DNA of 64,000 nt. It comes from Rhynchopus sp. YZ270_cl-10. Taxonomy: Eukaryota. Positions within the stretch are counted from its first letter, which is position 1. The number at the start of each line of letters is the position of its first letter. Of this stretch, positions 21,881-47,818 are shown piece by piece. The notes beneath the pieces are model-generated. The model worked only from the letters and a program-made list of their open reading frames with translations. It made no database searches and had not been told where the DNA came from. The stretch lies in contig OZ037843.1 in the NCBI GenBank assembly GCA_964035575.1, positions 62,001 through 126,000 on the forward strand, written 5' to 3'. Made by a program: the position numbers and the translations under genes.

Positions 21881-22596
21881 CCTACCCTCCCCCGTGCATA
21901 AGTCTGCGTATAAGTCCGATTTTTAGGGGGGCTGAGGGCCTCCGGACTTATACACGGGGTTTCGGACTTATACACCGTTCGGTTTTGTGCACCCAGGTAC
22001 CCAGACCCATGCAGTGTCACATGACCTCAGTGTGAGTGACCCACACATGAGGGAATGTGACACCGCAAAATTTACCCTGTCTTCGTGCAACTTCGGTACA
22101 ACGCCGCAGACAGGCCAACCAGCGTTGGACTCAGAGGAATGCCTGCTGGGAAGGTATCAAACATGAGAACCAACTCCCAGCAACAAGGGGCACCTTTTTT
22201 GGCTGCTGAGACTGTTTGGGGCGCAAAGTTTTCCACAATTTTGCAGTAACAGGTGCACATCTTTGAGAATTGTGAGGATGATGTTTTGACATGAGAAGCG
22301 CGAAGATGATCCCTGGTGAATACACCGCCAATAAAACAAATTGCGCTCGCTTCGCTCGCGGAAAAACACCCAATATTTCCCCCCCGCTCGCTTCGCGAGC
22401 GGGAAAACGCGCCAAAAAAAATTCTCCCCACCACCAGTACACAAAACCGGTGTATAAGTCGGCCTGTGCATAAGTCCGATCCTGAGCCCAAATCTGCCCG
22501 AACTTATACACGGATCATCGGACTTATGCACGGGTCATGGGGGTCGGACTTATGCACGGGTCATGGGGGTCGGACTTATGCACGGGGGGGAGTAGG
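21881..22596. mobile_element. TA-flanked MITE abutting the previous one
   Basis: TIR CCTAC(C/T)C(T/C)CCCCCGTGCATAAGTC; internal repeats GGACTTAT(A/G)CACGG; TA on both sides. Confidence 0.8.
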
Positions 22597-26674: not shown

Positions 26675-28608
26675 TAGTCTGATAAACAAAGAAACGAAAT
26701 CAAACGAAACAGAATTTTTTCGTTGATTGCACCGAATTTTTGTGGAAAAACCAAGACAATTATACCCGCCAACTGATCTTGATAACTTGATAAAAGGAAA
26801 GAAGGCTTATTTTCGTTGAACGCAGCCCAAAAGGTGAAATCCTGATGTGTCGCAAAGTGAAATGATGTGAAAAAGAAATGGATAAGTCGTTAACAAGTCA
26901 AATGTTGGCTTTCTTTTTTTGTCTGGTTTCTAAACACACTTCGTGGAGGGGAAAAAAGTGAGCAGGGACAAAATCAAAAAAAATTATGTTGATAAGTTGT
27001 GTCGTGTTTACGTCGGTCTCACCCAAAAAACTCGGGAACAGCTCTCGTGCATAGTTCCTCCCCCTACGACTTTTGCAAGGCAGTTTGTCTCAAAACAAGA
27101 ATGAATGAAATGAACAAATTTGATACACTATACTTTCCAATAGACGCTAGTGGTATATTAGAAGCAGGATTGCTGAAAAAGAAAACAGACCCTGAAGGCA
27201 CGAAAAAAAAAAATGCTCCGCATACCGGACGATACATACCCCTCCATCGGTTCGAGCAGTCAACACCTTCATAGAGTTTCAGGAGGAACGGACCCCCTCG
27301 GATGCAGTTTATAGTCCAGCCCAGGACCTTAGATTAAACAATAGAGAAATACAAATAAGAAAGTAAAAGGAAGAAAAGTTTTTAAGATAGAACCTAAGCC
27401 TCTCTGTGCTTAGTCACCTTAGGTCACATTCGTTATCGCAGTAGCAACAGCTGCGCGAGAACGAAACAACAGACGTTGACAAATAAATGAAACAACAAAA
27501 TCCTACAGGACAGAAGGGAAGCACAATTTTTATTCCGTATTCCGAGTCCTGCGACCGTACAGATTTTTTGGAGGCAGAGAACCGGAACAAAGAAAAAAAA
27601 TTGCTTCCCAGGAATCCCTAAAAAATGCGAAAAAAAGGGAGGGAGAGGAGCTACCGGAAAAAATGATTTATTGTTATTTTGTAACAATAAATGGGAAAAA
27701 CGAGCCTTCCTAAAAGAAGATTGAAACAAAGTGAAGTTATTAATGCAGGCATCTCCGACTGACCCACGTACGTTGCCAGCCATCCGGATGAAAGCACAAG
27801 TACCCTGCGGCCAACAACAGAAGATGTAAAAAGGAAACCTAATGACTGGCCCGTACCGTAAGAGAACGAGGGCGGTTCACAACCGCTCGACAGCCGGCGG
27901 CCCACCTTCCGTTGAAGAGTTGTGAGCTTACAGGTACTGCAGTTCGCTGCACCCAACGCTTGGTGCACGATAGTCTACACAAGAGAGCAGAAACCCAAAA
28001 ACACAAAAAGGGGTGGGCGGGGGGGTCACAACATCTCTCTCTTGGCGCCCCATGCTGTACCGACAGTTGGGCCTCACCCTTTCTCTTAGGGATATACATG
28101 GACGTCCTTACAGGCAGCACACCGTAACCCAAAGGCGTGGCAGAGAGACTCCGCAGAGCGACTCTGGCCTGACCGCTGGCCATTTATGCTCCGGGTGCGA
28201 GCACCCATCATAGCATAGGGGGGCCAGCCTGACCCAGCATTTATATACCCTGCCAGGGTGAACTTGCATAAAAGAGGGCAGGGGCGTTTAGACCCTGAGG
28301 ACTAGGGGAAGTCCCGCATACCCCAACAGAAAGACAAAGGCTATGCACTGGTGATAAAGGAGAGGCAGGGTTGCTGAAAAACAAAAAGACCCTGAAGGCA
28401 CAAAAACGCCCCGCATACCCCTCCTCGCCTCCTGTTTTGTAATCTCTCAGGTAGGAGACATCGGTTCGAGCGGTCAACACCTTCATAGAGTTTCTGGAGG
28501 AACGGACCCCCGGATGCAATTTAAGGTCCAGCCCAGGACCTAAAAAAGGAAAAATGATGGTAAAAATATTTTAAAAACGTTGGAGTCCCTCGGGAGGTTT
28601 CTGAAACC

Positions 28609-29784
28609 TTAAAATCTATATTGGTCTTCACCCCTCTGAGTTTTCAACCTTCGGAGGCTTCTTGTAGTACTGAAATAAAACTCGAGAGAGAAGATATTCG
28701 CAAGATGCTTTGTGACCACACCCTGCCAGTAGCGAATCATTCCTTGGTCCCCACAATCCGTGGTGACGTTGTACTCAGCCTCACACAGGCACTTCCCGCC
28801 TGCATCACATTCACCATGACCGTGGCACGTCACATCGTCGGTGCAATAAACATCACAATCATGACCGTAATAATGAGGCAGGCATTTTTGACAGTTTGTG
28901 TCCTCATCGAACCCTTGGTCACAATCGCATCCAAGCTTGGCGTCATTGTATGACCCTCGCGCGTTGCACATGATGTCACTGCACGTAGTAGCAGGGTCGC
29001 AGTGAAATTCGCATGCAGGACCAACCCAGCCGTCGTTGCATTTGCATTTGGACACATCACCTTCGCATCTGCCGTTCCCGCTGCAGGTAAGCGAAGGACT
29101 GCAGGCGCAGGCTGCGCCTTTCCAATGTACCCAATCACCGTCGCAAGTGCACGCAGTCAAAGCTCCTGTCGCGTCGCATTTCCCTTGGCTGCATTGCGCA
29201 TCGTCGCAAAACACTTCACAATGCGGACCATACCAATCGTCATCACAGAGGCAGGGCAGGCCTAAGGTGTTGTGGTCGCAATACCCGTTGTTGCTGCAGA
29301 ACGTACGGCACGTCTTGTCGCAGGAGTTGCCAATCCAGCCAGGGTTGCAGACACAGCTGAACGTGTCGTCGCAATGCTGGTTCTGTCCACAGTGTTGGTC
29401 TGTGTAGCATACACCTTGTGAGGCACACGGCGTTCCAGGGGTGCATGGGATGTTGCAGTATACCCCGGTCCAACCAGTGCTGCATGCGCAGGCGGATGTG
29501 AGTGGATCGCACGTCCCGTGGCCGTGGCATGTCTCTGAAGGGCTGCAGGCGCAGCTCAGACCAACCCAACCTGGGGTACAGATGCAGTCGGAATTCTCAC
29601 ATTGTCCGTTCCCGTTGCATGTCTCTGAAGGGCTGCAGGCGCAGTCGTCTCCTGTCCAGTCGCCAGGACACCGGCAAGAGTTGTCGTAACATAAGGACTT
29701 CGCCCCTGGGCACTCAGCATCGGAAGTGCACCTCTGAGAACGAACTGCCCACAGCATCGCCAAACCCACAAAGGAGCGCAACAT
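28609..29784 (-). CDS. Secreted cysteine-rich EGF/tenascin-like repeat protein, copy 1 (391 aa from MLRSFV)
   Basis: Signal-peptide-like MLRSFVGLAMLWAVRS; repeated C..GxC...CxC..GWxGxxC units. Confidence 0.88.
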   Translation of the reverse strand: MLRSFVGLAMLWAVRSQRCTSDAECPGAKSLCYDNSCRCPGDWTGDDCACSPSETCNGNGQCENSDCICTPGWVGLSCACSPSETCHGHGTCDPLTSACACSTGWTGVYCNIPCTPGTPCASQGVCYTDQHCGQNQHCDDTFSCVCNPGWIGNSCDKTCRTFCSNNGYCDHNTLGLPCLCDDDWYGPHCEVFCDDAQCSQGKCDATGALTACTCDGDWVHWKGAACACSPSLTCSGNGRCEGDVSKCKCNDGWVGPACEFHCDPATTCSDIMCNARGSYNDAKLGCDCDQGFDEDTNCQKCLPHYYGHDCDVYCTDDVTCHGHGECDAGGKCLCEAEYNVTTDCGDQGMIRYWQGVVTKHLANIFSLEFYFSTTRSLRRLKTQRGEDQYRF

Positions 29785-31486
29785 CGTTGTGCCGCTGTCC
29801 AAATGCGAGAAAAGGTGTTGAACCTGCGATGTGAAGGTGTGTGTGTGGTAGGTACTGAGTAAAAGCTCAAACGGCCATTTTAATACGCATATTTGTTCCG
29901 CACGCATAATACTGTGAAAACCAGTTGAACAATCCCAGCATGACAGAGCAGGAGGTCATTTGACCACTTTCCTGGATGCCAGGAAAGGGGAAGATGATTT
30001 TCGCGTCGAAGGCATCCTCAAGGTGATCTCAAAAACAGTTGGGTAGGGGTGGCTTTTATTGTTTTCCATTTTAAAATGATTTTTGTAGCAAAACCAAGCC
30101 ATGCAATAGGCAGGGGAAGGGACCGAGGTCTCTTCGCGTGGGCCATTCAACAGGGGAAGTGTGGGTGGAAAAAGAGATAGGGCAAAACACCTCTGATTTG
30201 CCTGTTCCCCCCTGCCCTATGTAGCACAACAACAACAAGCAAACCCTTAAAGTGCGAGAGATGAAACACAGAAAGGGAGAAAGTGGAAACGGTATACTCT
30301 AATTACATCCGAAGAACGTGTCTTTTCATTTCCAGGCTCGTACAAAAAAGTGAAGTTGATGCTGATAACGGCGTATGACGTGGGTAGCGTACCAACTAAA
30401 CAAAAGATGAAAGGGGTTTTTATTATTTCTTGGATATAAAAGAGAAAAAAACAAGAGTGCAGTGCACGATAAGCAAGACTTGGGTGCGCCTCTCTCGACT
30501 GAAAAAGGGGTCTGCCCGTCCTACTGAAATCATGCACAAATATTCAGAATTTTTTTAAGATAATTTTTTTAAGATAATTCCCTGTGTATTTTCCTTAAGG
30601 AAAATACAGGCAAAAATCCAGGTAAAAATCACTTTGTACAGACTATGCCTGGCGGGCACAGGGTGTGTCAAAACCAAAAAAAAATTGCTCGAATGGACGT
30701 TTCTGGGTTCCGGCATCTAGAGTCAAAAAAAATCTATTTTTTTTTCGCGAAATTTTTTGACTTAACACTGGTTGTGCTTAGAAAACCCGAATTTTTTACC
30801 CTTGAAAAGTGCATTTGAGGAAGTCACAATGCGTCAAAACGAAAAGGTCGTTTTTGGCACTTTTAAAACCGGGCTCCGCTGAGTTCACCATATTTTTGCT
30901 CGATTTATTTAGTGGAGTAACTATTACTTTATCGTATGTGTGGACAAAAATTTGGGACGGAGCGTAAATGAATCACTTGATCATCGTTTTGCACATGATT
31001 TTTTGAGTCGGTTGCAGAAATCATCTCTCATGATTTCTGAATCGGTAGAGTTGGCTAGCCGAAAACAAAAGGACTGATATTTAGTTGTCAATATTCGTTC
31101 ATTTTTGATAAATTGTTGGAGTAGTGTAGTTGCCTCGGTTGTGTTGCCACAGTTGTGCAATCTCCACTGTCAATGTTTTTTTTTGTTTTGTTTTCTTCCT
31201 TTTTATGTACTAAGATGTTCTGTCTGCTCACCGAGAAAGAGTGACTTAAAGAGTCTTGGTCTTAGCTGTCTTCTATACGTAGTGTATTCCGTGCAATAAT
31301 TGCTACCAATCCAAACCAATACTAGTCACATCCTGTTTGTGTACCATCTATTAGTGTAGCCACCCTAGAGCGTGCTCCACTATATTCTGATGCCTGCGCG
31401 AACAGATGAGAAAGATTCAGTTGGGAAAAAGTAAGCTTGCATCTCTTTATTGTAACGTTGGAGTCCCTCAGGAGGTTTTTGAAACC

Positions 31487-32572
31487 TTAAAATCTATATT
31501 GGTCTTCACCCCTCTGAGTTTTCAACCTTCGGAGGCTTCTTGTAGTACTGAAATAGAACTCGAGAGAGAAGATATTCGCAAGATGCTTTGTGACCACACC
31601 CTGCCAGTAGCGAATCATTCCTTGGTCCCCACAATCCGTGGTGACGTTGTACTCAGCCTCACACAGGCACTTCCCGCCTGCATCACATTCACCATGACCG
31701 TGGCACGTCACGTCGTCGGTGCAATAAACATCACAATCATGACCGTAATAATGAGGCAGGCATTTTTGACAGTTTGTGTCCTCATCGAACCCTTGGTCAC
31801 AATCGCATCCAAGCTTGGCGTCATTGTATGACCCTCGCGCGTTGCACATGATGTCACTGCACGTAGTAGCAGGGTCGCAGTGAAATTCGCATGCAGGACC
31901 AACCCAGCCGTCGTTGCATTTGCATTTGGACACATCACCTTCGCATCTGCCGTTCCCGCTGCAGGTAAGCGAAGGACTGCAGGCGCAGGCTGCGCCTTTC
32001 CAATGTACCCAATCACCGTCGCAAGTGCACGCAGTCAAAGCTCCTGTCGCGTCGCATTTCCCTTGGCTGCATTGCGCATCGTCGCAAAACACTTCACAAT
32101 GCGGACCATACCAATCGTCATCACAGAGGCAGGGCAGGCCTAAGGTGTTGTGGTCGCAATACCCGTTGTTGCTGCAGAACGTACGGCACGTCTTGTCGCA
32201 GGAGTTGCCAATCCAGCCAGGGTTGCAGACACAGCTGAACGTGTCGTCGCAATGCTGGTTCTGTCCACAGTGTTGGTCTGTGTAGCATACACCTTGTGAG
32301 GCACACGGCGTTCCAGAGGTGCATGGGATGTTGCAGTATACCCCGGTCCAACCAGTGCTGCATGCGCAGGCGGATGTGAGTGGATCGCACGTCCCGTGGC
32401 CGTGGCATGTCTCTGAAGGGCTGCAGGCGCAGTCGTCTCCTGTCCAGTCGCCACGACACCGGCAAGAGTTGTCGTAACATAAGGACTTCGCCCCTGGGCA
32501 CTCAGCATCGGAAGTGCACCTCTGAGAACGAACTGCCCACAGCATCGCCAAACCCACAAAGGAGCGCAACAT
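31487..32572 (-). CDS. EGF-repeat protein, copy 2 (361 aa; lacks one 30-aa EGF unit)
   Basis: Near-identical to copy 1 with an in-frame 90-bp deletion. Confidence 0.88.
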   Translation of the reverse strand: MLRSFVGLAMLWAVRSQRCTSDAECPGAKSLCYDNSCRCRGDWTGDDCACSPSETCHGHGTCDPLTSACACSTGWTGVYCNIPCTSGTPCASQGVCYTDQHCGQNQHCDDTFSCVCNPGWIGNSCDKTCRTFCSNNGYCDHNTLGLPCLCDDDWYGPHCEVFCDDAQCSQGKCDATGALTACTCDGDWVHWKGAACACSPSLTCSGNGRCEGDVSKCKCNDGWVGPACEFHCDPATTCSDIMCNARGSYNDAKLGCDCDQGFDEDTNCQKCLPHYYGHDCDVYCTDDVTCHGHGECDAGGKCLCEAEYNVTTDCGDQGMIRYWQGVVTKHLANIFSLEFYFSTTRSLRRLKTQRGEDQYRF

Positions 32573-33164
32573 CGTTGTGCCGCTGTCCAAATGCGAGAAA
32601 AGGTGTTGAACCTGCGATGTGAAGGTGTGTGTGTGGTGGGTACTGAGGAAAACTCAAACGGCCATTTTAATACGCATATTTGTTCCGCACGCATAATACT
32701 GTGAAAACCAGTTGAACAATCCCAGCATGACAGAGCAGGAGGTCATTTGACCACTTTCCTGGATGCCAGGAAAGGGGAAGATGATTTTCGCGTCGAAGGC
32801 ATCCTCAAGGTGATCTCAAAAACAGTTGGGTAGGGGTGGCTTTTATTGTTTTCCATTTTAAAATGATTTTTCGTAGCAAAACCAAGCCATGCAATAGGCA
32901 GGGGAAGGGACCGAGGTCTCTTCGCGTGGGCCATTCAACAGGGGAAGTGTGGGTGGAAAAAGAGATAGGGCAAAACACCTCTGATTTGCAGCCAGTGAAG
33001 ATCCTGCTACCTAGAAAGGGGGGGGTTAGAACACCCGGGTTGTTGTTTTGCGGGGAAAACTGAACTAACATTTTGCAATAGTAGTTGGTGATAGCAGACA
33101 CCTCCGACTGACCCACGTACGATGCCAGCCATCCGGATGAACAGCATAAGAAGGAAGAACTATT

Positions 33165-33291
33165 CATAATTTTACGGTAATTATAACCCCATACTTACAC
33201 GCAGGTGGTTTATGTCACGAGCGGGTATTAACCCAAACGAGTGACATAAACCCACCTAAGTGCAATTAGGGGGGGATAATTACCAATTATG
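33165..33291 (+). other. Solo imperfect hairpin of the YR-associated hairpin family
   Basis: GGTAATTAT..CAC GC AGGTGG TTTATGTCAC GA ... GA GTGACATAAA C CCACCT AA GTG..ATAATTACC. Confidence 0.7.
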
Positions 33292-33979
33292 ACGAGTACA
33301 AAAAGTTACAGTATCTATAGAGTGGGGGTAGTAAATTGCAACCACACATCCTACTTTTCCCCACAAACAGTAAAACAATAAAAACAATAAAGACAAAAGG
33401 GAGAGGTTGTGATCCAACACCTCTACCGAAAAATTTAGGGGTTTTGGCATTTCGCCACGATTCTGGAAAAATCGATGGCGATAGCGAACGCCCTGAATGC
33501 AACATTATTTTTACTACGAGGGTAATAAAATGAAAGCAAAAAGGAAGGAATGTTTATAATGTGGCCCTAAGCCTCTCTGTGCTTAGTCTGATTAGATTAC
33601 TTTTTTCCTGTGCTTAGTCACCTTTGATCACATTCGTTATCGCAGTAGCAACAGCTGCGCGATAACGAAACAACAGACGTTGACAAATAAATGACCAACA
33701 AAATCCTACAGGACAGAAGGGAAGCACAATTTTGTTTTTGTTTTTTTTTTCATACTCCGAGTCCTTGCGCGCGGACAGATTTTTGTCAAATTTGAGAAGA
33801 TTAACTTGGGAAAAAGTATTCTTGTACTCTTTCTTGCTGATCGTTCTTTTACATTGCCTGCGTGCGTACAGATTTTTTGGAGGCTGAGAACCTGAACAAA
33901 GAAAAAGATGTTGTGCTTCCCAGGAATCCCTACACGGTGCGGTCTGTCGTGCTTGGAGTGTGTAAATAACGGACTTACC

Positions 33980-34110
33980 CCCTGAGTCCGACAGTCGGAC
34001 CCCCTGAGTCCGACAGACGGACTCAGGGGTCCGTCTGTCGGACTCTGGAGTCCGACAGACGGACTCTGGAGTCCGACTGTCGGACTCTGGGGTCCGACAG
34101 TCGGACCCAA
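33980..34110. repeat. Palindromic minisatellite GTCCGAC(A/T)G(T/A)CGGAC, left array
   Basis: Seen directly; matching array at 44897-45030. Confidence 0.9.
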
Positions 34111-34420
34111 AAAAAAAAAATTTTTTTTTTTTGGGCCGAAAAAAAAAATTTTTTTTTTCATAGTGTGAGAACGATCGTGACGGTTTTTTTCAAGATCTTG
34201 AACTTTTTTTCAAGATCTTGACATTTTTTTTTTTTATATCACATGTGAAAATGACTTTTTGCTGGGATCCTTCACAAACGGGGCGTGAAATAAAGTGAGC
34301 TTTTTTTCACGCTTGCTCTTAGTAATTTCGCTGGAGGCGTGAAAAAAAGTTTCACTGGCGTGAAAAAAAGTTTCACTGTTTTCTGTCAGTCACAAAACCA
34401 CACACTCCACCCTACAAATC

Positions 34421-35437
34421 ATGCCAAGGACCAAGAAGAAGGAGGCTATGGAGGATCTGTATGAGACCGAGCTTCTGGCAGGGTTGAAGTCAAGCACTGC
34501 ATACAAAACGGAGTGGAATAAGTTTTTACAACACAATAAAATCACGGGGCGGAAGCAGCCAAGAGAAGAACATGTGGTCTCTTACTTGACACACCTGCGC
34601 GAAGAACGCAGCTACAAAGCCAGCTCATTATGGTCGTGCTACTCTAAGCTCAACTTTATGTTCAAGACGGAGTTCGACTTTTCACTAAAGGAGTACCACC
34701 GCATCGGGCTGTTGCTGAAGACCTGGGGAAGTGACGAATCGACGAAGAAGAGCAAGACGTTTTCGAAGGGAGAAGTGGAGATGTTTCTCAAGATGAGCGA
34801 GTTGAGCGACTGCTACTGGTGTGTCCGCAAGGCTTACGTCGCGGTGTGTTTTCTGTCGGGAATGAGATGCACAGAAGCACTGATGCTTGAGATGACAAAT
34901 TATCAGGAATCACCAGTGGGATACCTCTTCACGTACCAGCACTGTGCTAAGGTGAAAAAGGCCGACATGGAGCGTGGGAGGTTTGTGGTACCAAGAGACA
35001 GCATCTACTTTTGTGTGGTGGAGGAGTACCTGAACCGGCGCTCACCAGTTTCACAGGAGGGTCGCTTCTTCATCACTGGAACTAAGACGACAGCTGACAG
35101 AACTACTACTGGGACCTTTCGTGTGCAACCTCTTGGCATCAACAAAATGTACGGCATACCTGCAGAAGTCGCGAGGGTGCTTGCGCTGGACGGTTCGTAC
35201 ACTGGGCACAGCTTCCGCAGGTCTTCTGCGACTCAAGCCGCTGAGGCAGGAGCATCTATTGTACAGATGCAACGCCACTATGGGTGGGTCAGTCAGGCAA
35301 TGCCACAAAGGTACACCGAAGTCACACAGGCCGGTCAAGTTGCGATGTCACAGCTGTTGACACAGAACAACAGTCCCCCAACTCAGACGCCACAAGAAGT
35401 CAAGATTAACATCAATGTGCAACAGAACAAACCATGA
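34421..35437 (+). CDS. Tyrosine recombinase, 338 aa, catalytic set intact
   Basis: SGMRCTE (R), AKVKK (K), GHSFRRS (HxxR), HYGW (H/W), RYTE (Y); N-terminal core-binding-like helices. Confidence 0.95.
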   Translation: MPRTKKKEAMEDLYETELLAGLKSSTAYKTEWNKFLQHNKITGRKQPREEHVVSYLTHLREERSYKASSLWSCYSKLNFMFKTEFDFSLKEYHRIGLLLKTWGSDESTKKSKTFSKGEVEMFLKMSELSDCYWCVRKAYVAVCFLSGMRCTEALMLEMTNYQESPVGYLFTYQHCAKVKKADMERGRFVVPRDSIYFCVVEEYLNRRSPVSQEGRFFITGTKTTADRTTTGTFRVQPLGINKMYGIPAEVARVLALDGSYTGHSFRRSSATQAAEAGASIVQMQRHYGWVSQAMPQRYTEVTQAGQVAMSQLLTQNNSPPTQTPQEVKININVQQNKP

Positions 35438-35730
35438 TCATGAGTGCAAAAAAAAAAAACCCCCCTTCTGTGATGCTCTATACACCTGCCCCCCCCCCTA
35501 CAGGCGAGATGAGTGGTGACATCTTGTAATTAGTACCAGTCATAGGAGGCATATATCAAAAAAAGTAACCCCTTCCCTGCTTTTGATTGATGTTCACATG
35601 TTCCCCTACTCTCATTCACACTCTCACTTACAGGTACCCACATTTTGTTCATAAAATCACTCTATTTTACGTCTCGTTTGTGAAGGATCCCAGCAAAAAT
35701 ATCATTTTCACTTGTAAAACAAAACTACGT

Positions 35731-35884
35731 ATTAGTTTGAAATAAAGTGCGTTTTTTCACTTCCACGTATTTTGTCTCACTCGTGCTCTATTATTGCCCT
35801 CGCCTGCGGCTCGGGCAATAAACTCTCACTCGTGAGCCAAAATTACGTGGGCGTGAAAAAAAGTGCACTTTATTTCACGCTAAT
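35731..35884 (-). other. ~150-nt imperfect terminal hairpin with strand-specific G.A mismatches and GCA triloop
   Basis: Minus strand reads ...TTTCAC GC CCACGTA..CTCAC GA GTG AGAGT TTATTGCCC GA GCC GCA GGC GA GGGCAATAA TAGAG CAC GA GTGAG..TACGTGG AA GTGAAA... Confidence 0.85.
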
Positions 35885-37099
35885 AATTAGTTATTTTTTC
35901 ACGATCGTTTTTTTTTTTCACGATCGTTTTTTTTTTTTCCCCTAGTAGTACAAGGGGCATGGGCGTGAAATGGGTGGCAAGGGAGAGTTTCTGGGTTCTA
36001 CTTGGACTTTTTTGACCGACTCTTTTCCTTGAAACGATTTTGTGGCGAATCTTTCAAATAAAGCAAAAATCGAGAACATTCTCACACCAGAATCCCCCCC
36101 AACGGATGTCGCCAGCGAGGCACTAAAACCAGAAAACCGTTTTTACCCATAGCAAGTGCCACTATAGTGGCGCACGAATGCCACACGTTGGTAGGGGTAA
36201 TGGGGTTCTACTCATTTTCGTAAAGACATTTTTTTTCTGTGTGACAAGAATAAGGCAAGAATCGACAACTTTCGTGAAAATGTCATATCGTTGGATGCTG
36301 GAGGGAGGTGGGTCAACCCTAGGAAAACGACTTTTTTTGGCGCTCACCCCCAAAATCACCCCCTGCCTCGTGACTTCGCCCTGCAAACAGAATTCTACTC
36401 AAAATCGTAAAATAAATTATATTTCGTAAGAATTGATGTCGATCTTTTAGATAAAGCCAAAATCGAGCAGTTTTGATGATTAGGTTAGTGCAGCCGTAAC
36501 AAGGAGAACACAGGGTAAAATCCCTTGGTTTTCCCTTGCTGTACTGTATGTGTTAAAAAGTGTGTATTGGTGTACGGGAGAGATGCGCGTTTAAAGTTGC
36601 AACATTTTTAGGCTGATTGACGTGGGCCTGGCATGCCCCATTTTTCACTTTTTACCACCGATTTAATTCGATCACCATCGAACACTGGGAAAATTTCTTG
36701 GTCAGTTTGGGGTATAACACGTGTATGACCTAATTTTAGGTGGTCAGAAGTGGAGTCTGACCCCCGTGCCCACATCATTTTTGAGCATGTTTTTTGGTTT
36801 TCCTCAGCACAACGTAGGAGAAGGCGAACTGTTTACAAGGAGGGACAGGGTCGAGCGTGAGTGGGTCACTGCAGTGGCTCACGATACACTGAACGGGTTT
36901 GCGGCTGGGAGGGAAACGTTTCCACTGTTACAGGCAAGTCACAAGGGGGTGGTGACTTGTGTGGGAGAAATGGGTACGGACAAGGCTGTATGCGTTTAGT
37001 CCCAAGAGCCTTCACTGATGTCAGAGTCGTGATGCTCAGCATCATCATCAACCTTGGGGTCCTCAGCTGTCGCGTCGCAGTCAATATAGCTCCCGCACG

Positions 37100-37340: not shown

Positions 37341-38746
37341 GCTACAAACGCTCCCCTTCACTCCTTAGATCAAACATTACCCGTTGTCTTGCAAGAACTT
37401 GCCCAATTCTGCAAATTGACCCCACCACTGCACGGGCGGCTTCCAAAAATGCAAATAAGGACCCTTTTCCACAACCTTCCTTCACAGAAGGGTCAATTTT
37501 ACAAACCCGGATTTTGAGGAAAATTTTAGCCGAAAATGGGCCCACGTATAAGTGACCGGGCTCATATTTCCCAAAATTTAAGTGGTCAAAAAATCCAATT
37601 TTCGAGATTGACCCCACCACTGCACGGGCGAATCCCAAATGTAAATAAAGACGTTTTTGGCCCAAAATAAATCTGCCAAAATTGTGTCCCGGATTGGATT
37701 TTGGACTCCGGACCCCATATTTAGAAATAGCCCTGTGTTCTAAACAATGAGCATCACAGCGGTTGACCCTGGTATTTTTGGTTTTTTTTGAAAATCTCAG
37801 CTCAAAAAATACCAAAAAAAAAAAAAAAAATACAGGCGTATCATCCTTGCGTGACCCCCCCAAATTCTAAAATCTGTGGACAGCGTGCTCTGACATAGGT
37901 TGTACTCATTAAAAAACCGGTAAAAATACAAGTAATGTGTGATGGTCAAAAGTGCAAAATTCCTTCGCCAATGCATTATTTGAGCATTTGTTATACCTGG
38001 AGAATATGGTCAGATCACTCTTCAGACCACCAGCCAACGAAATATACCGTAATTGTACAGAGGTTGGACAGTACAAAAGTTGGGGCTTTTGGCCAACTTG
38101 GCCTGGTGTTGAACCGCATCCCCCGCCACAATGGGCATAAATGTCCTCTTGGTCCGTAAAGGGTTAAAAAGAGTGTCTCACGATACACATACAACCACTC
38201 GCGATTGGATAGATATTATAACAAAGGGAATTCAGAACAAAACAACACCCTGCCCACACACTAAATTGCCATGCTTCAAGAGCATGCCTGCCGGGCCAAA
38301 AATTACTGTGGCAAAAAGGCAACAAGACCACCCACAAAGAGTGTGAATTGTATTGGATGGACAGGGGTTTGCACAGTGATGATGTTACTACGACTAGGTT
38401 TTTGGCGATATTACATGTGCATGTTACATGCCATGCCGTGACGTGCTGCTTCATGGTATACGCATGTCATAGAATGTCGCGATTTTTTACGATTCGTATT
38501 TCGGGTTTTGCGAATTTTGTTCCAGAAAAGTACACCCCAAAAATGGCAAAAAAGGTGACATTTTACGTCAAAACACCGCTAAAAGTTACTCTCGGCCGAT
38601 TTCAGGGGGGTTGTGGGCACCTGTGGGGGCTCCCTCCCTGGTGTGGGCCAGCGATCAACGACATAATATGGGAAAAAAAAAACGATCGTTTTTTTTTTCC
38701 TTCACGATCGTGAAGAAAAAGGTGCTTTTTTTTCACGATCGTGAAG

Positions 38747-40405
38747 AAATAACTAATTATTAGCGTGAAATAAAGTGCACTTTTTTTCACGCCCACGTAA
38801 TTTTGGCTCACGAGTGAGAGTTTATTGCCCGAGCCGCAGGCGAGGGCAATAATAGAGCACGAGTGAGACAAAATACGTGGAAGTGAAAAAACGCACTTTA
38901 TTTCAAACTAATACGTAGTTTTGTTTTACAAGTGAAAATGATATTTTTGCTGGGATCCTTCACAAACGAGACGTAAAATAGAGTGATTTTATGAACAAAA
39001 TGTGGGTACCTGTAAGTGAGAGTGTGAATGAGAGTAGGGGAACATGTGAACATCAATCAAAAGCAGGGAAGGGGTTACTTTTTTTGATATATGCCTCCTA
39101 TGACTGGTACTAATTACAAGATGTCACCACTCATCTCGCCTGTAGGGGGGGGGCAGGTGTATAGAGCATCACAGAAGGGGGGTTTTTTTTTTTGCACTCA
39201 TGATCATGGTTTGTTCTGTTGCACATTGATGTTAATCTTGACTTCTTGTGGCGTCTGAGTTGGGGGACTGTTGTTCTGTGTCAACAGCTGTGACATCGCA
39301 ACTTGACCGGCCTGTGTGACTTCGGTGTACCTTTGTGGCATTGCCTGACTGACCCACCCATAGTGGCGTTGCATCTGTACAATAGATGCTCCTGCCTCAG
39401 CGGCTTGAGTCGCAGAAGACCTGCGGAAGCTGTGCCCAGTGTACGAACCGTCCAGCGCAAGCACCCTCGCGACTTCTGCAGGTATGCCGTACATTTTGTT
39501 GATGCCAAGAGGTTGCACACGAAAGGTCCCAGTAGTAGTTCTGTCAGCTGTCGTCTTAGTTCCAGTGATGAAGAAGCGACCCTCCTGTGAAACTGGTGAG
39601 CGCCGGTTCAGGTACTCCTCCACCACACAAAAGTAGATGCTGTCTCTTGGTACCACAAACCTCCCACGCTCCATGTCGGCCTTTTTCACCTTAGCACAGT
39701 GCTGGTACGTGAAGAGGTATCCCACTGGTGATTCCTGATAATTTGTCATCTCAAGCATCAGTGCTTCTGTGCATCTCATTCCCGACAGAAAACACACCGC
39801 GACGTAAGCCTTGCGGACACACCAGTAGCAGTCGCTCAACTCGCTCATCTTGAGAAACATCTCCACTTCTCCCTTCGAAAACGTCTTGCTCTTCTTCGTC
39901 GATTCGTCACTTCCCCAGGTCTTCAGCAACAGCCCGATGCGGTGGTACTCCTTTAGTGAAAAGTCGAACTCCGTCTTGAACATAAAGTTGAGCTTAGAGT
40001 AGCACGACCATAATGAGCTGGCTTTGTAGCTGCGTTCTTCGCGCAGGTGTGTCAAGTAAGAGACCACATGTTCTTCTCTTGGCTGCTTCCGCCCCGTGAT
40101 TTTATTGTGTTGTAAAAACTTATTCCACTCCGTTTTGTATGCAGTGCTTGACTTCAACCCTGCCAGAAGCTCGGTCTCATACAGATCCTCCATAGCCTCC
40201 TTCTTCTTGGTCCTTGGCATGATTTGTAGGGTGGAGTGTGTGGTTTTGTGACTGACAGAAAACAGTGAAACTTTTTTTCACGCCAGTGAAACTTTTTTTC
40301 ACGCCTCCAGCGAAATTACTAAGAGCAAGCGTGAAAAAAAGCTCACTTTATTTCACGCCCCGTTTGTGAAGGATCCCAGCAAAAAGTCATTTTCACATGT
40401 GATAT
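38747..40405 (-). mobile_element. 1.66-kb tyrosine-recombinase element, copy R (inverted)
   Basis: Reverse complement of copy L apart from homopolymer length; hairpin at 38759-38912. Confidence 0.88.
39204..40220 (-). CDS. Tyrosine recombinase, 338 aa, identical to 34421-35437
   Basis: Identical translation in the ORF track. Confidence 0.95.
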   Translation of the reverse strand: MPRTKKKEAMEDLYETELLAGLKSSTAYKTEWNKFLQHNKITGRKQPREEHVVSYLTHLREERSYKASSLWSCYSKLNFMFKTEFDFSLKEYHRIGLLLKTWGSDESTKKSKTFSKGEVEMFLKMSELSDCYWCVRKAYVAVCFLSGMRCTEALMLEMTNYQESPVGYLFTYQHCAKVKKADMERGRFVVPRDSIYFCVVEEYLNRRSPVSQEGRFFITGTKTTADRTTTGTFRVQPLGINKMYGIPAEVARVLALDGSYTGHSFRRSSATQAAEAGASIVQMQRHYGWVSQAMPQRYTEVTQAGQVAMSQLLTQNNSPPTQTPQEVKININVQQNKP

Positions 40406-40890
40406 AAAAAAAAAAAAAAAAACGATCGTTTTTTTTTTCTTCACGATCGTGAAAAAAAAAAAAAAAAAAAAAGACCGATCACTTTTTCCCAGATTCGTAA
40501 AAAAAAAAAAAAAAAAAAAACGATCGTTTTCACCCTATGTTTTTTGGCCAAAAAAATTTTTTTGGCCGAAAATCGCCTTGTATAGCCACTACAGTACACA
40601 TGGTTTTACCAAAATAGCCGTATTTTGGCTGAAAATTTGACTTGAAAATTTTTTTCATTGTTTGGTCAATCTGAGGTTTTCTTTGAATTTTTTGGGCCAT
40701 TTTATGACCTACTACACCCAATTTTTGGGGGATTTTTTTTTTCTTGGTCAAAAAATAGCGCTTGTTGCCTACTACTGGGTATAGGCTTGTTCAGAGGTGT
40801 GTATTTGGTGTACCCAGACATGGTCAAAACACATGAATTTTGCGTTTTTTTGCATTTTTAGGTTCTCGACCAACCAGGGGGCGACCAATT

Positions 40891-41418: not shown

Positions 41419-41720
41419 TTATCTCACTTGTGTAATAATGTTTAGCCGCGTTTTCGAAATTCCTTCCTGGAGATTACACAAAATACAGTAGACATTATCT
41501 CCGCACACAAAGAACAAAACAAAACCCATGCCGAGAGTAGGCGCAAAAGCAATATGGAGGAGATCTGCGCATGCAACCAAAAGGGTTGCAGTCATAGGAC
41601 TTCGAGGAACTGTTCACCATACCCAACCTTGACGCCCCGTACTAGGTGGTCATACATCATTTGTCAAATATACTGTAGGAATTTCGAAAACGCAGCACAA
41701 CATTATTGCCCGTGAGATAA
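41419..41720 (+). mobile_element. IR-bounded cassette A with a probable degenerate YR 5' fragment
   Basis: ~45-bp IR TTATCTCAC..AATAATGTT..GCGTTTTCGAAATTCCT (41419-64 / 41677-720). ATG at 41528 gives MPRVGAKA then frameshifted MEEI, weakly like YR MPRTKKKEAMEDL. Confidence 0.55.
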
Positions 41721-42535
41721 TAACTATTTATTCGAGTGAAATAAGAACTATTTTATTTCACGCGCCACTAAAAAGGTGCCCGAGTGCGTTATTTCCCGAG
41801 CGAAGCGAGGGGAATAAGAGTGAGAGTCACGAGGGTGCCTTTTTAGTGGCAAGTGCAAGAAAATGTTCTTATTTCACTCAATATGTAATTTTATTCCACA
41901 AGTGAAAAACGTATTTATAGGTGTAAACAGTGGAACGTTGAGCCCACGCTCCACCCCTCACACCACCACACTTCAAATTACAGATTATTTATTGCCTCTT
42001 ACACACATGCCTAAACCCACGCGCAAGTTTGCGGAGATGGAGGATGCATATGACAACTTGTTCGACGACATGAACAGTGGTGTGCAGTACAGGAAAACAT
42101 GGGACGATTTCCTCCGTTTCAACAGACTTTCAGGAGCGAACGAGCCCAGGGAAGAACACGTCGTGTCCTTCAGATCACTCCGTGATCTTTTATTTCACTC
42201 CCCCACCCAATCCTTCACGATTTGCGTGAAATAAAACGTGAAATAAAACGAATCTTATTTCACTCACTTTTTCACCTGTTTACGTTTTTCACGCGTGGTA
42301 TAAAATTACGTATCGAAAACTAAAGTGAACATTATTTAACTGATGGGTGATTCACAAACTGGAATACGTGATACCCACTCGCTATCGCTCGTGACATCAC
42401 TTTTATGATTACACTCACTTCACTCATGAAATCAAAATGCTGAACTCCACTCGCTTCGTGAAGTTGAGCCCCAGTTTGAGTCACCCACCACCTCGTGAAA
42501 TAATGTTCACTTTATTTCATGAGATAATAATTATC
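41719..42535 (+). mobile_element. Internally deleted YR-element relative: hairpin A - IR - YR fragment - IR - hairpin B
   Basis: Hairpin 41734-41879; 33-bp IR 41881-41913 / 42281-42313; branched hairpin ~42311-42525; end ATAACTATTTATT resembles ATAACTAATTATT of the full element. Confidence 0.8.
42007..42171 (+). pseudogene. Truncated YR N-terminus (diverged paralog)
   Basis: MPKPTRKFAEMEDAYDNLFDDMNSGVQYRKTWDDFLRFNRLSGANEPREEHVVSF aligns with YR MPRTKKKEAMEDLYE...AYKTEWNKFLQHNKITGRKQPREEHVVSY. Confidence 0.85.
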
Positions 42536-42547
42536 TAACTCAGTGAA

Positions 42548-43404
42548 ATAAAACTCGTGTAATTTTGCAGATTATATGCCCTTTGTGTCACTCAATTGTA
42601 ACCGAGAATGTAAGGCAGTGAGTATTTGATCTGCCCTTTATGTCGCGAAATACTATGTTTGGTGTTTTGACGTCTTCCAAGCAGATGGATATTCCCTCAC
42701 TTGCACGCAATCTACCGAGGAACCGACTGCCTTTCTCAAAAGCCAGTACATGTCGGGGTGTCGAGGTCCGTGTCAATACAAAGCGGACCAAGTCGCTCGA
42801 GGTTTGAAAACCGCAAGAACTCGTCCCATTTCTTCTTGTACACCTCCTTGCTTCTCATACCCGCTGAGACTTGGTATCCGTAAGTGTCATACATCCTGTC
42901 CTTCTTCGTTTTGGCAGTGTTTGAGGGGAGTGATGAAAAAGTTCTTTTTTTTACTGAGTGATTTTTTTAACCAAAAGAAAACCGACGCAGGAGCTTTTCT
43001 GGAACTGTTTTATTCTCCCCACCCCAACAACATCACATTTCAGAAAAACATTGTTTTTTCGTTTTTGTTCACTTTCTTTTCTTCTCCCTCACACCTGTTT
43101 GCTGTGAATTAAATTTTTTCGTTTCGGCCTGGTCGCAAACGCGAGTTTTCCTGGAAGCGCAGGAAAAATGACTGGGGAGTGTTGGTGGCTCCGTGACGCC
43201 ACAGAGCCGGCACACTCGTTGAGTGCCTCACAAAACCTCAAATTTATTCCGCTTTGATTTCATTTATTGTCTTCACGCTTTATCGTTGTTGTTGGGTTGG
43301 GAAATAATATTTCATTCTCCCATACATTCTCGGTTACAATTGAGTGACAAAGGGCACATTATCACCCACCTTTGTGGGAATTCACAAAATTACACGAGTT
43401 TTAT
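42548..43404 (-). mobile_element. IR-bounded cassette C containing a YR 5' fragment on the minus strand
   Basis: Perfect 20-bp IR ATAAAACTCGTGTAATTTTG (42548-67) / CAAAATTACACGAGTTTTAT (43385-404). Confidence 0.65.
42800..42917 (-). pseudogene. Another truncated YR N-terminus (not in the ORF track)
   Basis: Minus strand translates AKTKKDRMYDTYGYQVSAGMRSKEVYKKKWDEFLRF, aligning with RTKKKEAMEDLYETELLAGLKSSTAYKTEWNKFLQH. Confidence 0.75.
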
Positions 43405-44896
43405 CCCCTTTTTTTACCACATTAACCTCACCTTTCCCGATAACTGCGTTTCTACACCATACATTTCATTCATTAATCACACTCCACATTTACACTCATC
43501 ACAGGATCGTGAAATCTGAACTGCATCTGCGATTGTGATGAGAAGCCTCGCCGCGTCTCCGACATTCAGCAACTCAAAATCCAAAGAGTATCACCCGCAT
43601 CAATCCATTCTGAGTTTGCGGACTAAGATCTGGGGTGGAAGGGGGATGGGTACACTTTGTCAGTCACTGCTATTGCCATTTAACCCAGGGAGCATAGCTA
43701 GTGCAAGAAATTCGACTTTGGAAACCTTCCGGAAAGTCTGTCCTCTGCTTGCGGAGGACGAGGCACAAGAAAATATTGCGTTCCCCCAGAAAACCAGTGC
43801 ACATTTCACACTCCTTGTGGGTGGTCTTGTTGCCTTTTTGTCACAGTAATTTTGGCCCAGGCATGCTCTTGAAGCATGACAATTTAGTGTGTATGGGGCA
43901 GGGTGTTGTTTTGTTCTGAATTCTCTTTGTTATAACATCTGGTTTGTGTAGCGTGAGGCACTCTTTTTAACAAACTTCCTGCGGCTGCTAAAGCGTTATT
44001 TCTTCGGATTTAACAACGTACAGCGTAACATAGTGGATTCGCCTGGTCGACACAACCTTTGATAGATATGGGATAACCAACCCCCTTCGACCCCTCGTGG
44101 GTTCACTAAACAAGCCCTCGTGGTAGTTAAACGCGATTGACATTTACATTCCTAGAGATGAAAGAACAAGACAACACTTCTGTACCCGCGCATCAAAATT
44201 GTGGAAAACTTTGCACCCCAAACACCCTCAACAACGCCCGCCAAAAGGCGCCCCTTGTTGCTGGGAGTTGGTTCTCATGTTTGATACCTGCACAGCGGGC
44301 ATTCCTCTGAGTCCAACGCATGTTTGGCCTGTCTGCGGCGTTGTACTTCAGGTGCACGAAGACAGGGTCTGGTGGTAAATTTTGCGTAGTGTCGCATTCC
44401 CTCATGTGTGGGTCACTCACACTTGGCGGTCATGTGCCACTGCGTGGGTCTGGGAATTTGGGTACCTGGGTACAGGAAATTTGTTGTGGAAGACATCAAC
44501 CACCATGCATTGAGGAGGGTAAGACAGTGTTCGCAGTTTCTACCTGATAGCATTACAACATTTAACTTCTCCACGGGGGTCTTGGGCCGTTCACTCGGTT
44601 CTACCTTGACTACCGGAAGATATTCTTGAGGCCTTTCTGGTCTCTAGAATATCCGGTCTTCCCGAACGGAGGCACACTTTGTGTGTTACTACGACCTGGC
44701 AATTTCCAGCAGTAGGTTAAGTAATCTTTCTTGTAAATTGTTGGATCATTATCTCCTCAGTGCATGAATGCCCCACGTGACTGGACACTTTTGTGTTTGT
44801 CATGTGGAGCTGTGGTTGCTCTTTCACGACTTTTTTCCTGTTCCTGGGTACCTGTTCCTGGACCTGGACCTGGGTACCTGGGCACCTGGGTGTGCC

Positions 44897-45030
44897 TGTC
44901 GGACCCCAGGGTCCGGCAGTCGGACTCAGGGGTCCGACTGTGAGTCCGACAGTCGGACCCCTGAGTCCGACTGTCGGACTCAGGGGGTCCGACTGTCGGA
45001 CCCCCTCGGACTCCGACAAAAGGGTCCGAC
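44897..45030. repeat. Palindromic minisatellite GTCCGAC(A/T)GTCGGAC, right array
   Basis: Seen directly. Confidence 0.9.
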
Positions 45031-45687
45031 ATTTCCAGGACAGACTGCACCGTGTAGGCGAGAAAAAAAAAAATTTGTATAGTGGAGCACACTCTAGGGT
45101 GGCTACACTAATACAACCAAGTTTTCAAAAAAAGAGAAAAAAATAAAGCACAAAAGAAACAAAATGATTAAGATATTATTTTCAATCGAAAGATGGAGTT
45201 TTCCACCAGAGTCGTCTCCTCTTTTTTTATCTTATTTTTTGTTTATTTTTTGCAACTGAACAAACAGGGTACAGCCAGTACACCTTTCCCTAATTGTGTA
45301 GCACGGGTCCTCTTAGCAGGCCGTGGGCTGACAACAAAACTTTTGTGGTTTCGAGCTGCCTGCTCCTCTCCCACGTTCTCTGAACCCCCGGCAGCATCTC
45401 ATCAGTAGGAGCAAGGGTTCCTCTCCAGAAAAATAAAATAAAAGCAAATGAAAATGAAAATGAAAAGTGCTAAAAACGCGGCCTAGTCGAGCACATGCAC
45501 AGGGCGGGAGTTCGAAGTGTTCCGCATAACAAACGGATCAAACTAGAACCTATTTATACCCCAGCCATAAATGGCCACTATTATTTCGTAGCAGGGTCCC
45601 TGTAAATCATTGCTCAGATCAAACAAAAGAAAAATGATGGCGAAGATGTTTAAAAACGTTGGAGTCCCTCGAGAGGTTTCTGTAACC

Positions 45688-46863
45688 TTAAAATCTATCT
45701 TGGTCTTCACCCCTCTGAGTTTTCAACCTTCGGAGGCTTCTTGTAGTACTGAAATAGAACTCGAGAGAGAAGATATTCGCAAGATGCTTTGTGACCACAC
45801 CCTGCCAGTAGCGAATCATTCCTTGGTCCCCACAATCCGTGGTGACGTTGTACTCAGCCTCACACAGGCACTTCCCGCCTGCATCACATTCACCATGACC
45901 GTGGCACGTCACGTCGTCGGTGCAATAAACATCACAATCATGACCGTAATAATGAGGCAGGCATTTTTGACAGTTTGTGTCCTCATCGAACCCTTGGTCA
46001 CAATCGCATCCAAGCTTGGCGTCATTGTATGACCCTCGCGCGTTGCACATGATGTCACTGCACGTAGTAGCAGGGTCGCAGTGAAATTCGCATGCAGGAC
46101 CAACCCAGCCGTCGTTGCATTTGCATTTGGACACATCACCTTCGCATCTGCCGTTCCCGCTGCAGGTAAGCGAAGGACTGCAGGCGCAGGCTGCGCCTTT
46201 CCAATGTACCCAATCACCGTCGCAAGTGCACGCAGTCAAAGCTCCTGTCGCGTCGCATTTCCCTTGGCTGCATTGCGCATCGTCGCAAAACACTTCACAA
46301 TGCGGACCATACCAATCGTCATCACAGAGGCAGGGCAGGCCTAAGGTGTTGTGGTCGCAATACCCGTTGTTGCTGCAGAACGTACGGCACGTCTTGTCGC
46401 AGGAGTTGCCAATCCAGCCAGGGTTGCAGACACAGCTGAACGTGTCGTCGCAATGCTGGTTCTGTCCACAGTGTTGGTCTGTGTAGCATACACCTTGTGA
46501 GGCACACGGCGTTCCAGGGGTGCATGGGATGTTGCAGTATACCCCGGTCCAACCAGTGCTGCATGCGCAGGCGGATGTGAGTGGATCGCACGTCCCGTGG
46601 CCGTGGCATGTCTCTGAAGGGCTGCAGGCGCAGCTCAGACCAACCCAACCTGGGGTACAGATGCAGTCGGAATTCTCACATTGTCCGTTCCCGTTGCATG
46701 TCTCTGAAGGGCTGCAGGCGCAGTCGTCTCCTGTCCAGTCGCCACGACACCGGCAAGAGTTGTCGTAACATAAGGACTTCGCCCCTGGGCACTCAGCATC
46801 GGAAGTGCACCTCTGAGAACGAACTGCCCACAGCATCGCCAAACCCACAAAGGAGCGCAACAT
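45688..46863 (-). CDS. EGF-repeat protein, copy 3 (391 aa)
   Basis: Near-identical to copy 1. Confidence 0.88.
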   Translation of the reverse strand: MLRSFVGLAMLWAVRSQRCTSDAECPGAKSLCYDNSCRCRGDWTGDDCACSPSETCNGNGQCENSDCICTPGWVGLSCACSPSETCHGHGTCDPLTSACACSTGWTGVYCNIPCTPGTPCASQGVCYTDQHCGQNQHCDDTFSCVCNPGWIGNSCDKTCRTFCSNNGYCDHNTLGLPCLCDDDWYGPHCEVFCDDAQCSQGKCDATGALTACTCDGDWVHWKGAACACSPSLTCSGNGRCEGDVSKCKCNDGWVGPACEFHCDPATTCSDIMCNARGSYNDAKLGCDCDQGFDEDTNCQKCLPHYYGHDCDVYCTDDVTCHGHGECDAGGKCLCEAEYNVTTDCGDQGMIRYWQGVVTKHLANIFSLEFYFSTTRSLRRLKTQRGEDQDRF

Positions 46864-47818
46864 CGTTGTGCCGCTGTCCAAATGCGAGAAAAGGTGTTGA
46901 ACCTGCGATGTGAAGGTGTGTGTGTGGTGGGTACTGAGCAAAAACTCAAACGGCTATTTTAATACGCATATTTGTTCCGCACGCATAATACTGTGAAAAC
47001 CAGTTGAACAATCCCAGCATGACAGAGCAGGAGGTCATCATTTGACCACTTTCCTGGATGCCACCAACGTGAACCACAGCACCAGGTGCGCGTCTATCCT
47101 TACCCAGTCGCAGAGGCAGTTCGTGAAACCCCAAATCCCGGCGGAAACCAGACGATCCACGGAGACTGCAAGGTATGGCGATGTGTGAATTGTGGAAATG
47201 GGGAGGGGGAGGACAGATTCTTATTGTCCCTCAAAATCTCTTTGTTGTCTCTTTAGTCTATTTTTCTTGCATTTCTTTTCTTCTTGTGCTTTCTTCGTTT
47301 TGGTTGTCAAGAAACGCTCAATCGCCTATCGAGTTCTGTGAATAGCACGGAACTGCGTTTCCTGTGTATCCGTGGAAAGACAGTATCATATGTGATACCG
47401 GAATATTTTTTTTTGAAAAAAGGGGTCGAGAAAAACAAACAACGAACGCGCTGTGTGGAAAAAAAAACGAGTGTTTCTCTGAGCGTGATATTTTGTGGGT
47501 GGAAGATAAAACACTATTAGATTCATATACTTTCAGTTCACAGAATTGAAAACATTTTGAGAGGGTCAACACATATCAAAAACACTATGAAAAAAGAAAA
47601 GCACGTTGTACTACCATTCCCCTCACATACGTTCCTCCACTCCATTTAGTTTTCTCTCTCACTTTAAAAAAGTTTTTAACTGTTTACCGCTTTTGTTTTC
47701 ACCCCCGCCCAGTAGCACTGGTTTCGTTGGGCACTTAGCACAAAGCCTGCTAATCACGACACTGTCCAACTAAAGAAATTGCCACCTTATTCGACAAACC
47801 CGCAAAACCTGAGGCTGG

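Follow-up and report, generated by a model that had tools for sequence, protein, structure and literature searches.

The stretch of DNA analysed here, hereafter the window, comprises 64,000 nt of Rhynchopus sp. YZ270_cl-10 (GenBank assembly GCA_964035575.1, contig OZ037843.1, positions 62,001 to 126,000 of the forward strand), and all coordinates below count from its first nucleotide. It contains a 1,660-nt element with one intact tyrosine recombinase (YR) gene inside and a long imperfect hairpin at the end downstream of this gene. Judged from its sequence and from that of its homologs, the element would be a CryptonI-like autonomous transposon which probably transposes as a folded single-stranded circle via one YR-catalysed strand exchange.

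On self-BLAST a repeat unit at 34224-35908 matches a second, inverted copy at 99.8% identity. The internal differences between the two copies are two homopolymer bases only and their identity ends at the element boundaries. In the sequencing runs X1 and X2 the element is present as a single unitig of 1,675-1,677 nt. Together, these observations show that it was recently copied as a unit, and a segmental inverted duplication was ruled out as the origin of the two copies since the identity stops at the element ends. Runs with a small share of the element yielded short exact pieces with unrelated loose ends, several of them at GATC, which were read as chimeric library products and excluded. The element ends were set by register with a homologous multi-copy family, to within a base or two inside T-runs. 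The first-pass annotation of this DNA had described one element at 34236..35896; its YR gene and hairpin are borne out, while the ends are better placed at 34234 and 35893 by the homolog register, and both the second copy (40407-38750) and the complementarity of the far end described below had been overlooked.

The open reading frame (ORF) of 338 aa matches Pfam Phage_integrase (E 3e-9) with a weak SAM-like N-terminal match, and R149, K177, H263, R266, W289 and Y298 are invariant or nearly so in a 40-sequence alignment, which confirms the intact YR gene reported at first. The predicted structure has a pLDDT (predicted local distance difference test) of 90 and is unstructured beyond residue 314. 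Its best structural match is Cre, with a template modelling (TM) score of about 0.70, against 0.54 for the integron integrase IntI4 (2a3v). On the IntI profile TIGR02249 the protein scores 32.6 bits against a cut-off of 265, and it is far below the cut-offs of the XerC and XerD profiles as well. By profile scores and structure prediction, then, the YR is not an IntI and its fold appears nearest to Cre. Relatives form 393 clusters at E <= 1e-10 and are spread over many kinds of metagenome. The two relatives with a species name are beetle proteins, with 25-28% identity. In the viral contigs searched no relative was found, and phage records gave two weak matches only (22.6% identity, E 9e-3). Among prokaryote genomes, three contigs of metagenome-assembled genomes (MAGs; L081-L083) hold homologs. 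In a quick tree comprising the metagenome loci, the MAG contigs and the two beetle proteins, with no other Crypton class and no outside references, they are placed on top of metagenome loci and are likely to be eukaryotic carry-over.

The inverted repeat of the terminal hairpin extends over about 180 nt (35716-35899), slightly more than the ~150 nt first given for it. Folding of both strands with DNA parameters, a check proposed in the first-pass annotation, gave a strong fold on each, with -49.7 kcal/mol for the plus and -51.3 kcal/mol for the minus strand, z of about -10 on both and 0 of 200 shuffles folding as well on either strand. Around the apex the minus strand shows GA/GA tandems at 35800-01/35811-12 and 35781-82/35830-31, an AGAG/AGAG run at 35786-89/35823-26 and a C-GCA-G loop at 35805-07, so that every one of the apex features originally noticed was found. 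At the same positions the plus strand shows TC/TC, CTCT/CTCT and a TGC loop. These are the pyrimidine mismatches originally noted for this opposite strand. In a strand-symmetric alignment the plus-strand mismatches comprise 13 C.T and 1 A.G. A search of Rfam gave no match. The features of the element are collected in Table 1.

Table 1. Features of the CryptonI-like element and of its insertion site (window coordinates; the arrow marks a predicted cut)
Feature	Position	Strand	Remarks
Autonomous CryptonI-like element, copy 1	34234..35893	+	Complete; from self-BLAST and register
Copy 2, inverted, 1,658 nt	38750..40407	-	ORF 40220-39204, identical protein
YR gene, intronless, 338 aa	34421..35437	+	All catalytic residues; Cre-like predicted fold
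Far end, hairpin-free; predicted first binding arm of the joined site	34234..34298	+	Imperfect inverted copy of 35657-35722
Repeated short motifs, putative (likely) accessory YR sites	34283..34371		Palindrome 34283-34312; 21-nt-spaced repeats from 34338
Internal complementary region, distal part	35657..35722	-	Partner of the far end in minus-strand pairing
Terminal hairpin	35723..35893	-	Minus strand is the purine-mismatch (GA) face
Internal spacer, 6 nt, opposite the 7-nt end spacer	35723..35728	-	Followed by mismatch 35729 vs 35886, symmetric to the crossover
Hairpin apex	35781..35831	-	Two C-GA/GA-G tandems, AGAG/AGAG run, C-GCA-G triloop
Fixed 7-nt spacer at the hairpin terminus	35887..35893	-	Crossover predicted at 35894/35893 (minus-strand AA↓T)
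Left part of target	34162..34233		T-run arrays of a short palindromic unit
Right part of target array	35894..35946		First 10 nt resemble the far-end arm, 7/10 identical in register

Homologs were picked by the YR protein alone, as the best 80 of 111 confirmed metagenome hits from a protein-pattern scan and the three MAG contigs, which makes 83 loci. A strand-symmetric hairpin search was run on 153 flanks, those of the window included, and 26 hairpins passed it: 25 in 24 of the 83 loci, plus the window's own. On the coding strand, hairpins upstream of the gene show 22 tandem GA/GA and no TC/TC, and hairpins downstream of it nine TC/TC (three from the window) and no GA/GA. All homolog hairpins with tandems (15/15; 11 upstream and four downstream) carry GA on the strand that has its 5' end at the hairpin terminus, and the AG/AG order occurs only in the AGAG run of the window. 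The downstream layout is found in four separate places of the quick tree, hence the GA polarity is tied to the end of the element rather than to transcription. Among the controls, neither 74 window tiles (three hairpins) nor 54 distal tiles nor 160 shuffled flanks yielded a hairpin with a tandem. L020, L027, L029, L033 and a palindrome downstream in L044 passed the filter without having the design; these were kept in the polarity counts and excluded from the far-end, apex and hairpin-base analyses. L037, whose base is cut by the contig end, was excluded from the far-end and base analyses, and L025 from the base analysis for its unclear register.

The hairpins are 110-250 nt long and almost unalignable in mid-stem, with local similarity above threshold in 3 of 171 hairpin pairs, and columns were counted from anchors instead of with a covariance model. 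The apex was recognised in 17 of 19 hairpins. Its outer closing pair is C-G in 17/17 and its inner pair purine-pyrimidine in 17/17 (G-C in 15, A-T in two), while the loops are mostly GNA. The context formed by these pairs, Y-GA-R, is known as the best for sheared pairs in DNA. With regard to the covariation looked for since the first pass, the C-GA/GA-G arrangement is thus kept in every recognised apex and its neighbouring pairs change on both sides (column -2 is C-G in eight, A-T in eight and T-A in one); pairing of the outer cells, in 54 of 68 against 26.5 in shuffles, is a partly circular figure.

Polarity and apex both bear on the possibility that the hairpin is a neutral fold-back end produced by template switching, its mismatches being due to chance or hitch-hiking. 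Other palindromic repeats do occur in the window, and repair can preserve pairing without selection. Repair also erases mismatches, yet C-GA/GA-G is present in all apices of families that are almost unalignable, and the window's other palindromes have no tandem GA/GA. A neutral origin is therefore largely excluded by polarity and apex conservation, and we give it very little credence. A second possibility is that the structure acts as RNA, either as a transcript element or as a DIRS-like template, and not as DNA. Tandem G.A pairs and CUUG-type loops are stable in RNA too, which counts for this explanation. Furthermore, a CTTG loop is found in 3/17 apices, and DIRS-1 has an internal complementary region (PMC5633606). 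Against it, the GA face is sense in 11 families and antisense in four and in the window, the element has a single ORF with no reverse transcriptase and no Rfam match, and a GAAA-loop mini-hairpin is far less stable as RNA than as DNA (PMC13037366). A role as RNA is accordingly most improbable.

The hairpin-free far end of the element aligns with the inverted internal region 35657-35722, which abuts the hairpin base, over 72 nt (z 27). In nine of 15 homolog families the far end likewise matches the 18-mer at the hairpin base (p<=0.01, 100 shuffles). The match begins exactly at the conserved T-run, and matches of at least 15/18 are seen in 8 of 16 at offset 0 compared to 0-2 of 16 at nine other offsets. 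Since the far end is complementary to the sequence adjoining the hairpin base, the joined ends would fold into one YR site. In a modelled circle the minus strand forms one long stem across the joint, with -96.9 kcal/mol against -68.9 kcal/mol when integrated. The joint in a six-copy family reads arm-AA, then a 7-nt spacer whose first base is T, then an arm that also begins with T, and this arm-spacer-arm layout is like that of dif or loxP. At the hairpin base (16 hairpins), the flank ends with AA in 14, the 6-nt internal spacer starts with AA in 14, and a mismatch occupies the position symmetric to the crossover in 13. From these sequence patterns the recombination point likely lies at the hairpin base, away from the GA-rich apex. 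The GA and GNA features lie some 80 nt away from this crossover, and it is therefore more likely that they nucleate the fold and select it than that they make up the site of cleavage. By reasoning, a protelomerase-type site was discarded, since the palindrome of the apex is imperfect and the conserved crossover is located at the base.

The distance between GA features and crossover could also speak for a hairpin that serves as an ssi-like priming or protection signal on a single-stranded circle, which would be made double-stranded and then integrate as a normal duplex. GNA mini-hairpins, whose stability in DNA is very high, are found at single-strand origins, and one of them is reported to bind SSB poorly (PMC13037366). 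Such a signal would require neither a far-end complement nor the conserved 7/6-nt spacer geometry. Moreover, a two-strand exchange with non-matching spacers is expected to leave the spacer at either end, whereas the 7-nt spacer is always at the hairpin end and never at the far end in 16 insertions (0/16), the seven bases after the far end being variable, with 0-5 of 7 identical to the spacer in 14 homolog insertions. We regard this explanation as unlikely, with a small chance of being right.

The insertions also carry a target signature. The six-copy family (L049:23-229, L051, L059, L061, L062, L069), of about 1.54 kb, keeps the GCA loop and the end geometry with G.T pairs replacing the GA tandems; its copies have exact ends, unrelated flanks and no target duplication, and one precise head-to-tail joint is found in L049. 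In eight single-copy families the insertion register came from arm pairing and not from multiple copies. In 15/16 insertions the far end is directly followed by A (p about 1e-5 against an assumed frequency of 0.4), which fits pairing of the target with the internal strand, while a duplex circle would predict T. Both window copies are inserted in T-runs of related but diverged arrays of palindromic units, and the window ends lie in T-runs, so that a short terminal repeat is possible there. The target arrays (34162-34233, 35894-35946, 38670-38749 and 40408-40535) have similar short inverted ends, adjacent to TA, at their borders and are possibly a repeat resembling a miniature inverted-repeat transposable element (MITE) that is a preferred target; an empty array of this kind was not found in the window.

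These data weigh on a further explanation, a strand-biased copy-out on duplex DNA as in the SE elements, with duplex ends and a duplex circle, in which the internal inverted site and the hairpin would be accessory (synapse, cruciform or regulation). The joined ends already make a symmetric duplex site of ATAA-N7-TTAT type, the YR is Cre-like, one YR clade is hairpin-less, and the SE elements circularise one strand with a 6-bp spacer on one side (PMC9345347). It leaves unexplained, on the other hand, why the target base agrees with the internal strand instead of with the complement of the joint itself (15/16), why the complementarity starts exactly at the crossover and why the mismatches are strand-polarised; besides, SE elements have four genes including two YRs, and the window element one. 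A duplex copy-out thus seems rather unlikely.

Together, the anatomy suggests a folded single strand and not the double-stranded circle assumed for Cryptons. The first-pass annotation had proposed that a Crypton-like YR uses a folded single strand as substrate, and the comparative anatomy agrees with it through the uniform polarity (15/15), the apex mismatches, the far-end complementarity and the one-sided spacer. In the favoured mechanism the GA strand would fold when exposed at a fork or extruded, aided by the sheared G.A tandems and the GNA loop. This strand alone would be cut at each of its ends, at AA↓N, and circularised, and the joint of the circle would pair with the internal complementary region into a dif- or loxP-like site made of arm, 7/6-nt mismatched spacer and arm. 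The YR would then exchange a single strand with a duplex target rich in A/T, a second exchange would be blocked by the mismatch at the symmetric position, and host replication would resolve the product, as for integron cassettes and the CTX phage. The source of the circle, which would be one-strand excision at a fork, is the weakest step; the SE elements are a precedent for strand-biased circularisation.

Several observations weigh against this mechanism. Tandem GA is absent from 10 of the 25 homolog hairpins that passed the search, five of them in the family with GCA loop and G.T pairs. A tight YR clade of 28 loci with intact H-R-W-Y has no such hairpin, including 0 of 11 loci with flanks of at least 600 nt on both sides; outside this clade a hairpin is present in 8 of 11 long-flank loci (six with GA tandems, two of the GCA/G.T family). 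In the hairpin-less clade (L021, L026, L028, L030 and 24 more) many YR genes are apparently intron-split, and the clade represents a gene that was domesticated or else larger elements whose ends differ; L081-L083 are copies of it filed in bacterial MAGs. The far-end match is missing in 6 of 15 families, four of which have a far flank of only 222-380 nt, and L045 and L068 show none despite more than 1,000 nt of far flank. The stem covariation is partly circular, the hairpins having been selected as hairpins, and the anchors of the hairpin-base columns were picked by eye, with two rows misregistered. By nearest-neighbour energies the GA face is the more stable one in 18 of 19 hairpins, with a mean difference of only -3.3 kcal/mol (-1.6 kcal/mol for the window), a small preference; these parameters do not fully reward GNA loops and sheared pairs. 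At the modelled joint the other strand folds lower, at -99.0 kcal/mol. In addition, the YR is Cre-like and has no IntI signature, the L049 joint may be a tandem insertion, and no element joint was found in the sequencing-run contigs, of which assembled contigs only were considered.

The window holds other traces of this kind of element. Motifs at 34283-34371 resemble those of the terminal hairpin and of the flanking arrays. A composite of decayed relatives lies at 41711-42960, with a GA-face hairpin on the plus strand (41711-41916), a YR N-terminal remnant (42007-42171; 43% identity, E 4e-10), a GA hairpin with branches on the minus strand (about 42290-42560) and a weaker YR remnant (42966-42739); its two hairpins are oriented towards each other. 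A solitary hairpin at 33157-33299 that shares the design, with the GA face on the plus strand, a decayed base and no adjacent YR, is likely a remnant terminus. At 22347-22403 two short GCGAAGC-type mini-hairpins lie 40 nt apart, one with GA/GA and neither with a long stem, and possibly belong to a different element. Near-perfect palindromic arrays of two other families, with no tandem GA/GA, are found at 33979-34109, 44852-45043, 53056-53275 and 54746-54968 and were used as controls. The neighbour genes are of eukaryote type (EGF, leucine-rich repeat (LRR), DUF3638). Positions 1-20728 form a tandem duplication with a unit of about 10 kb (97.9% identical) and a 2,700-aa ORF with DUF3638 and DUF3645. 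Three related EGF/teneurin-like repeat genes (28542-29981, 31454-32768 and 45622-47063) share stretches 97-99% identical, and a tandem repeat with a 56-nt period, more than 99% identical, occupies 63124-63577.

The feature at this locus is real and conserved within a transposon group that is already known, and the end architecture, as far as our literature search goes, is undescribed. If the proposed mechanism is true, it would be the first case in eukaryotes of tyrosine recombination on a single strand read by its structure, evolved on a Cre-like enzyme and independently of IntI, it would explain the featureless look of CryptonI ends, and it would provide a single-strand integrase that consists of one protein, has a loose target and makes no double-strand break. 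The locus provides a small, intronless, intact and recently copied YR with base-precise predictions of strand, cut site, partner strand and target rule. As to the wider group, we lean slightly towards seeing Cryptons, at least the CryptonI-like clade, as self-encoded eukaryotic counterparts of integron cassettes and the CTX phage, using one folded strand, a single exchange and G.A/GNA features for strand choice.

By its length, single domain and lack of terminal direct repeats the element fits CryptonI. Like CryptonI (PMC3212892), it encodes a single YR with no extra C-terminal domain (the Pfam matches being integrase and SAM-like only), unlike CryptonF and CryptonS, which have one; it has no terminal direct repeat; and its 1,660 nt compare with 1,657, 1,980 and 1,528 nt for three autonomous CryptonI entries. 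The named homologs of its YR are the beetle proteins, and CryptonI was described by Kojima and Jurka in 2011 from insects only (PMC3212892). The paper reports no terminal repeats of either orientation, in contrast to the terminal hairpin and split inverted repeat of the window element. The words 'hairpin' and 'palindrom' are absent from its main text, and likewise from the text of the Repbase review of human repeats (PMC5753468), in which Eulor5/6 are connected with Cryptons. A review of September 2026 gives the Crypton mechanism as not demonstrated and assumes a double-stranded circle (PMC13565253). Our literature search, with Repbase entries and subscription reviews, which may mention such fold-back ends, outside its scope, returned no description of a Crypton hairpin end, internal complementary region or single-strand recombination. 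Eulor repeats have reportedly been described as self-complementary.

The closest layout is that of attP(+) of the CTX phage, in which two inverted YR-type sites with unequal spacers pair on a single strand into a working site (PMC4246890), as in the window element by sequence and computed folding. The separation of the inverted sites is about 100-170 nt across this comparison. In CTX the two sites are 90 bp apart, neither is usable alone, and after a single exchange replication finishes the process (PMC4246890). CTX relies on host XerCD, a fixed dif target, a single strand from rolling-circle replication and filamentous phage genes, whereas the window element encodes its own YR, is loose in its choice of A/T target, and gains one of its two sites only through the joining of its ends. 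The name 'attC-like' given at first holds as an analogy only, given that the YR is not an IntI, attC R boxes are absent and the layout is nearer to CTX attP(+). As in the integron attC/IntI system (PMC2727003), a hairpin lies at one end of the ORF, unpaired features mark one strand (integrons recombine the attC bottom strand), the crossover would lie near the base on the 5' arm after AA, and the other end completes the stem. The window element differs from attC by AA↓T instead of AA↓C, by a 15-70-nt complement to the other end, by an extra base on the cleaved arm within the spacer where attC has extrahelical G and T on the opposite arm, and by encoding its own non-IntI YR. Strand choice seemingly goes through the G.A tandems, while the tip of attC has no role in it (PMC2727003).

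Among YR elements, DIRS-1 also has a non-coding internal stretch complementary to both ends (PMC5633606). DIRS is however a retroelement with three ORFs, including gag and reverse transcriptase/RNase H, and long inverted repeats, whose internal region is proposed to serve in complementary DNA synthesis (PMC5633606), whereas the window element has one long ORF in 1,660 nt. Finally, the SE elements share the YR-driven one-strand circularisation and one-sided spacer proposed here; they are bacterial, and the words 'hairpin' and 'stem-loop' do not occur in the SE text (PMC9345347).

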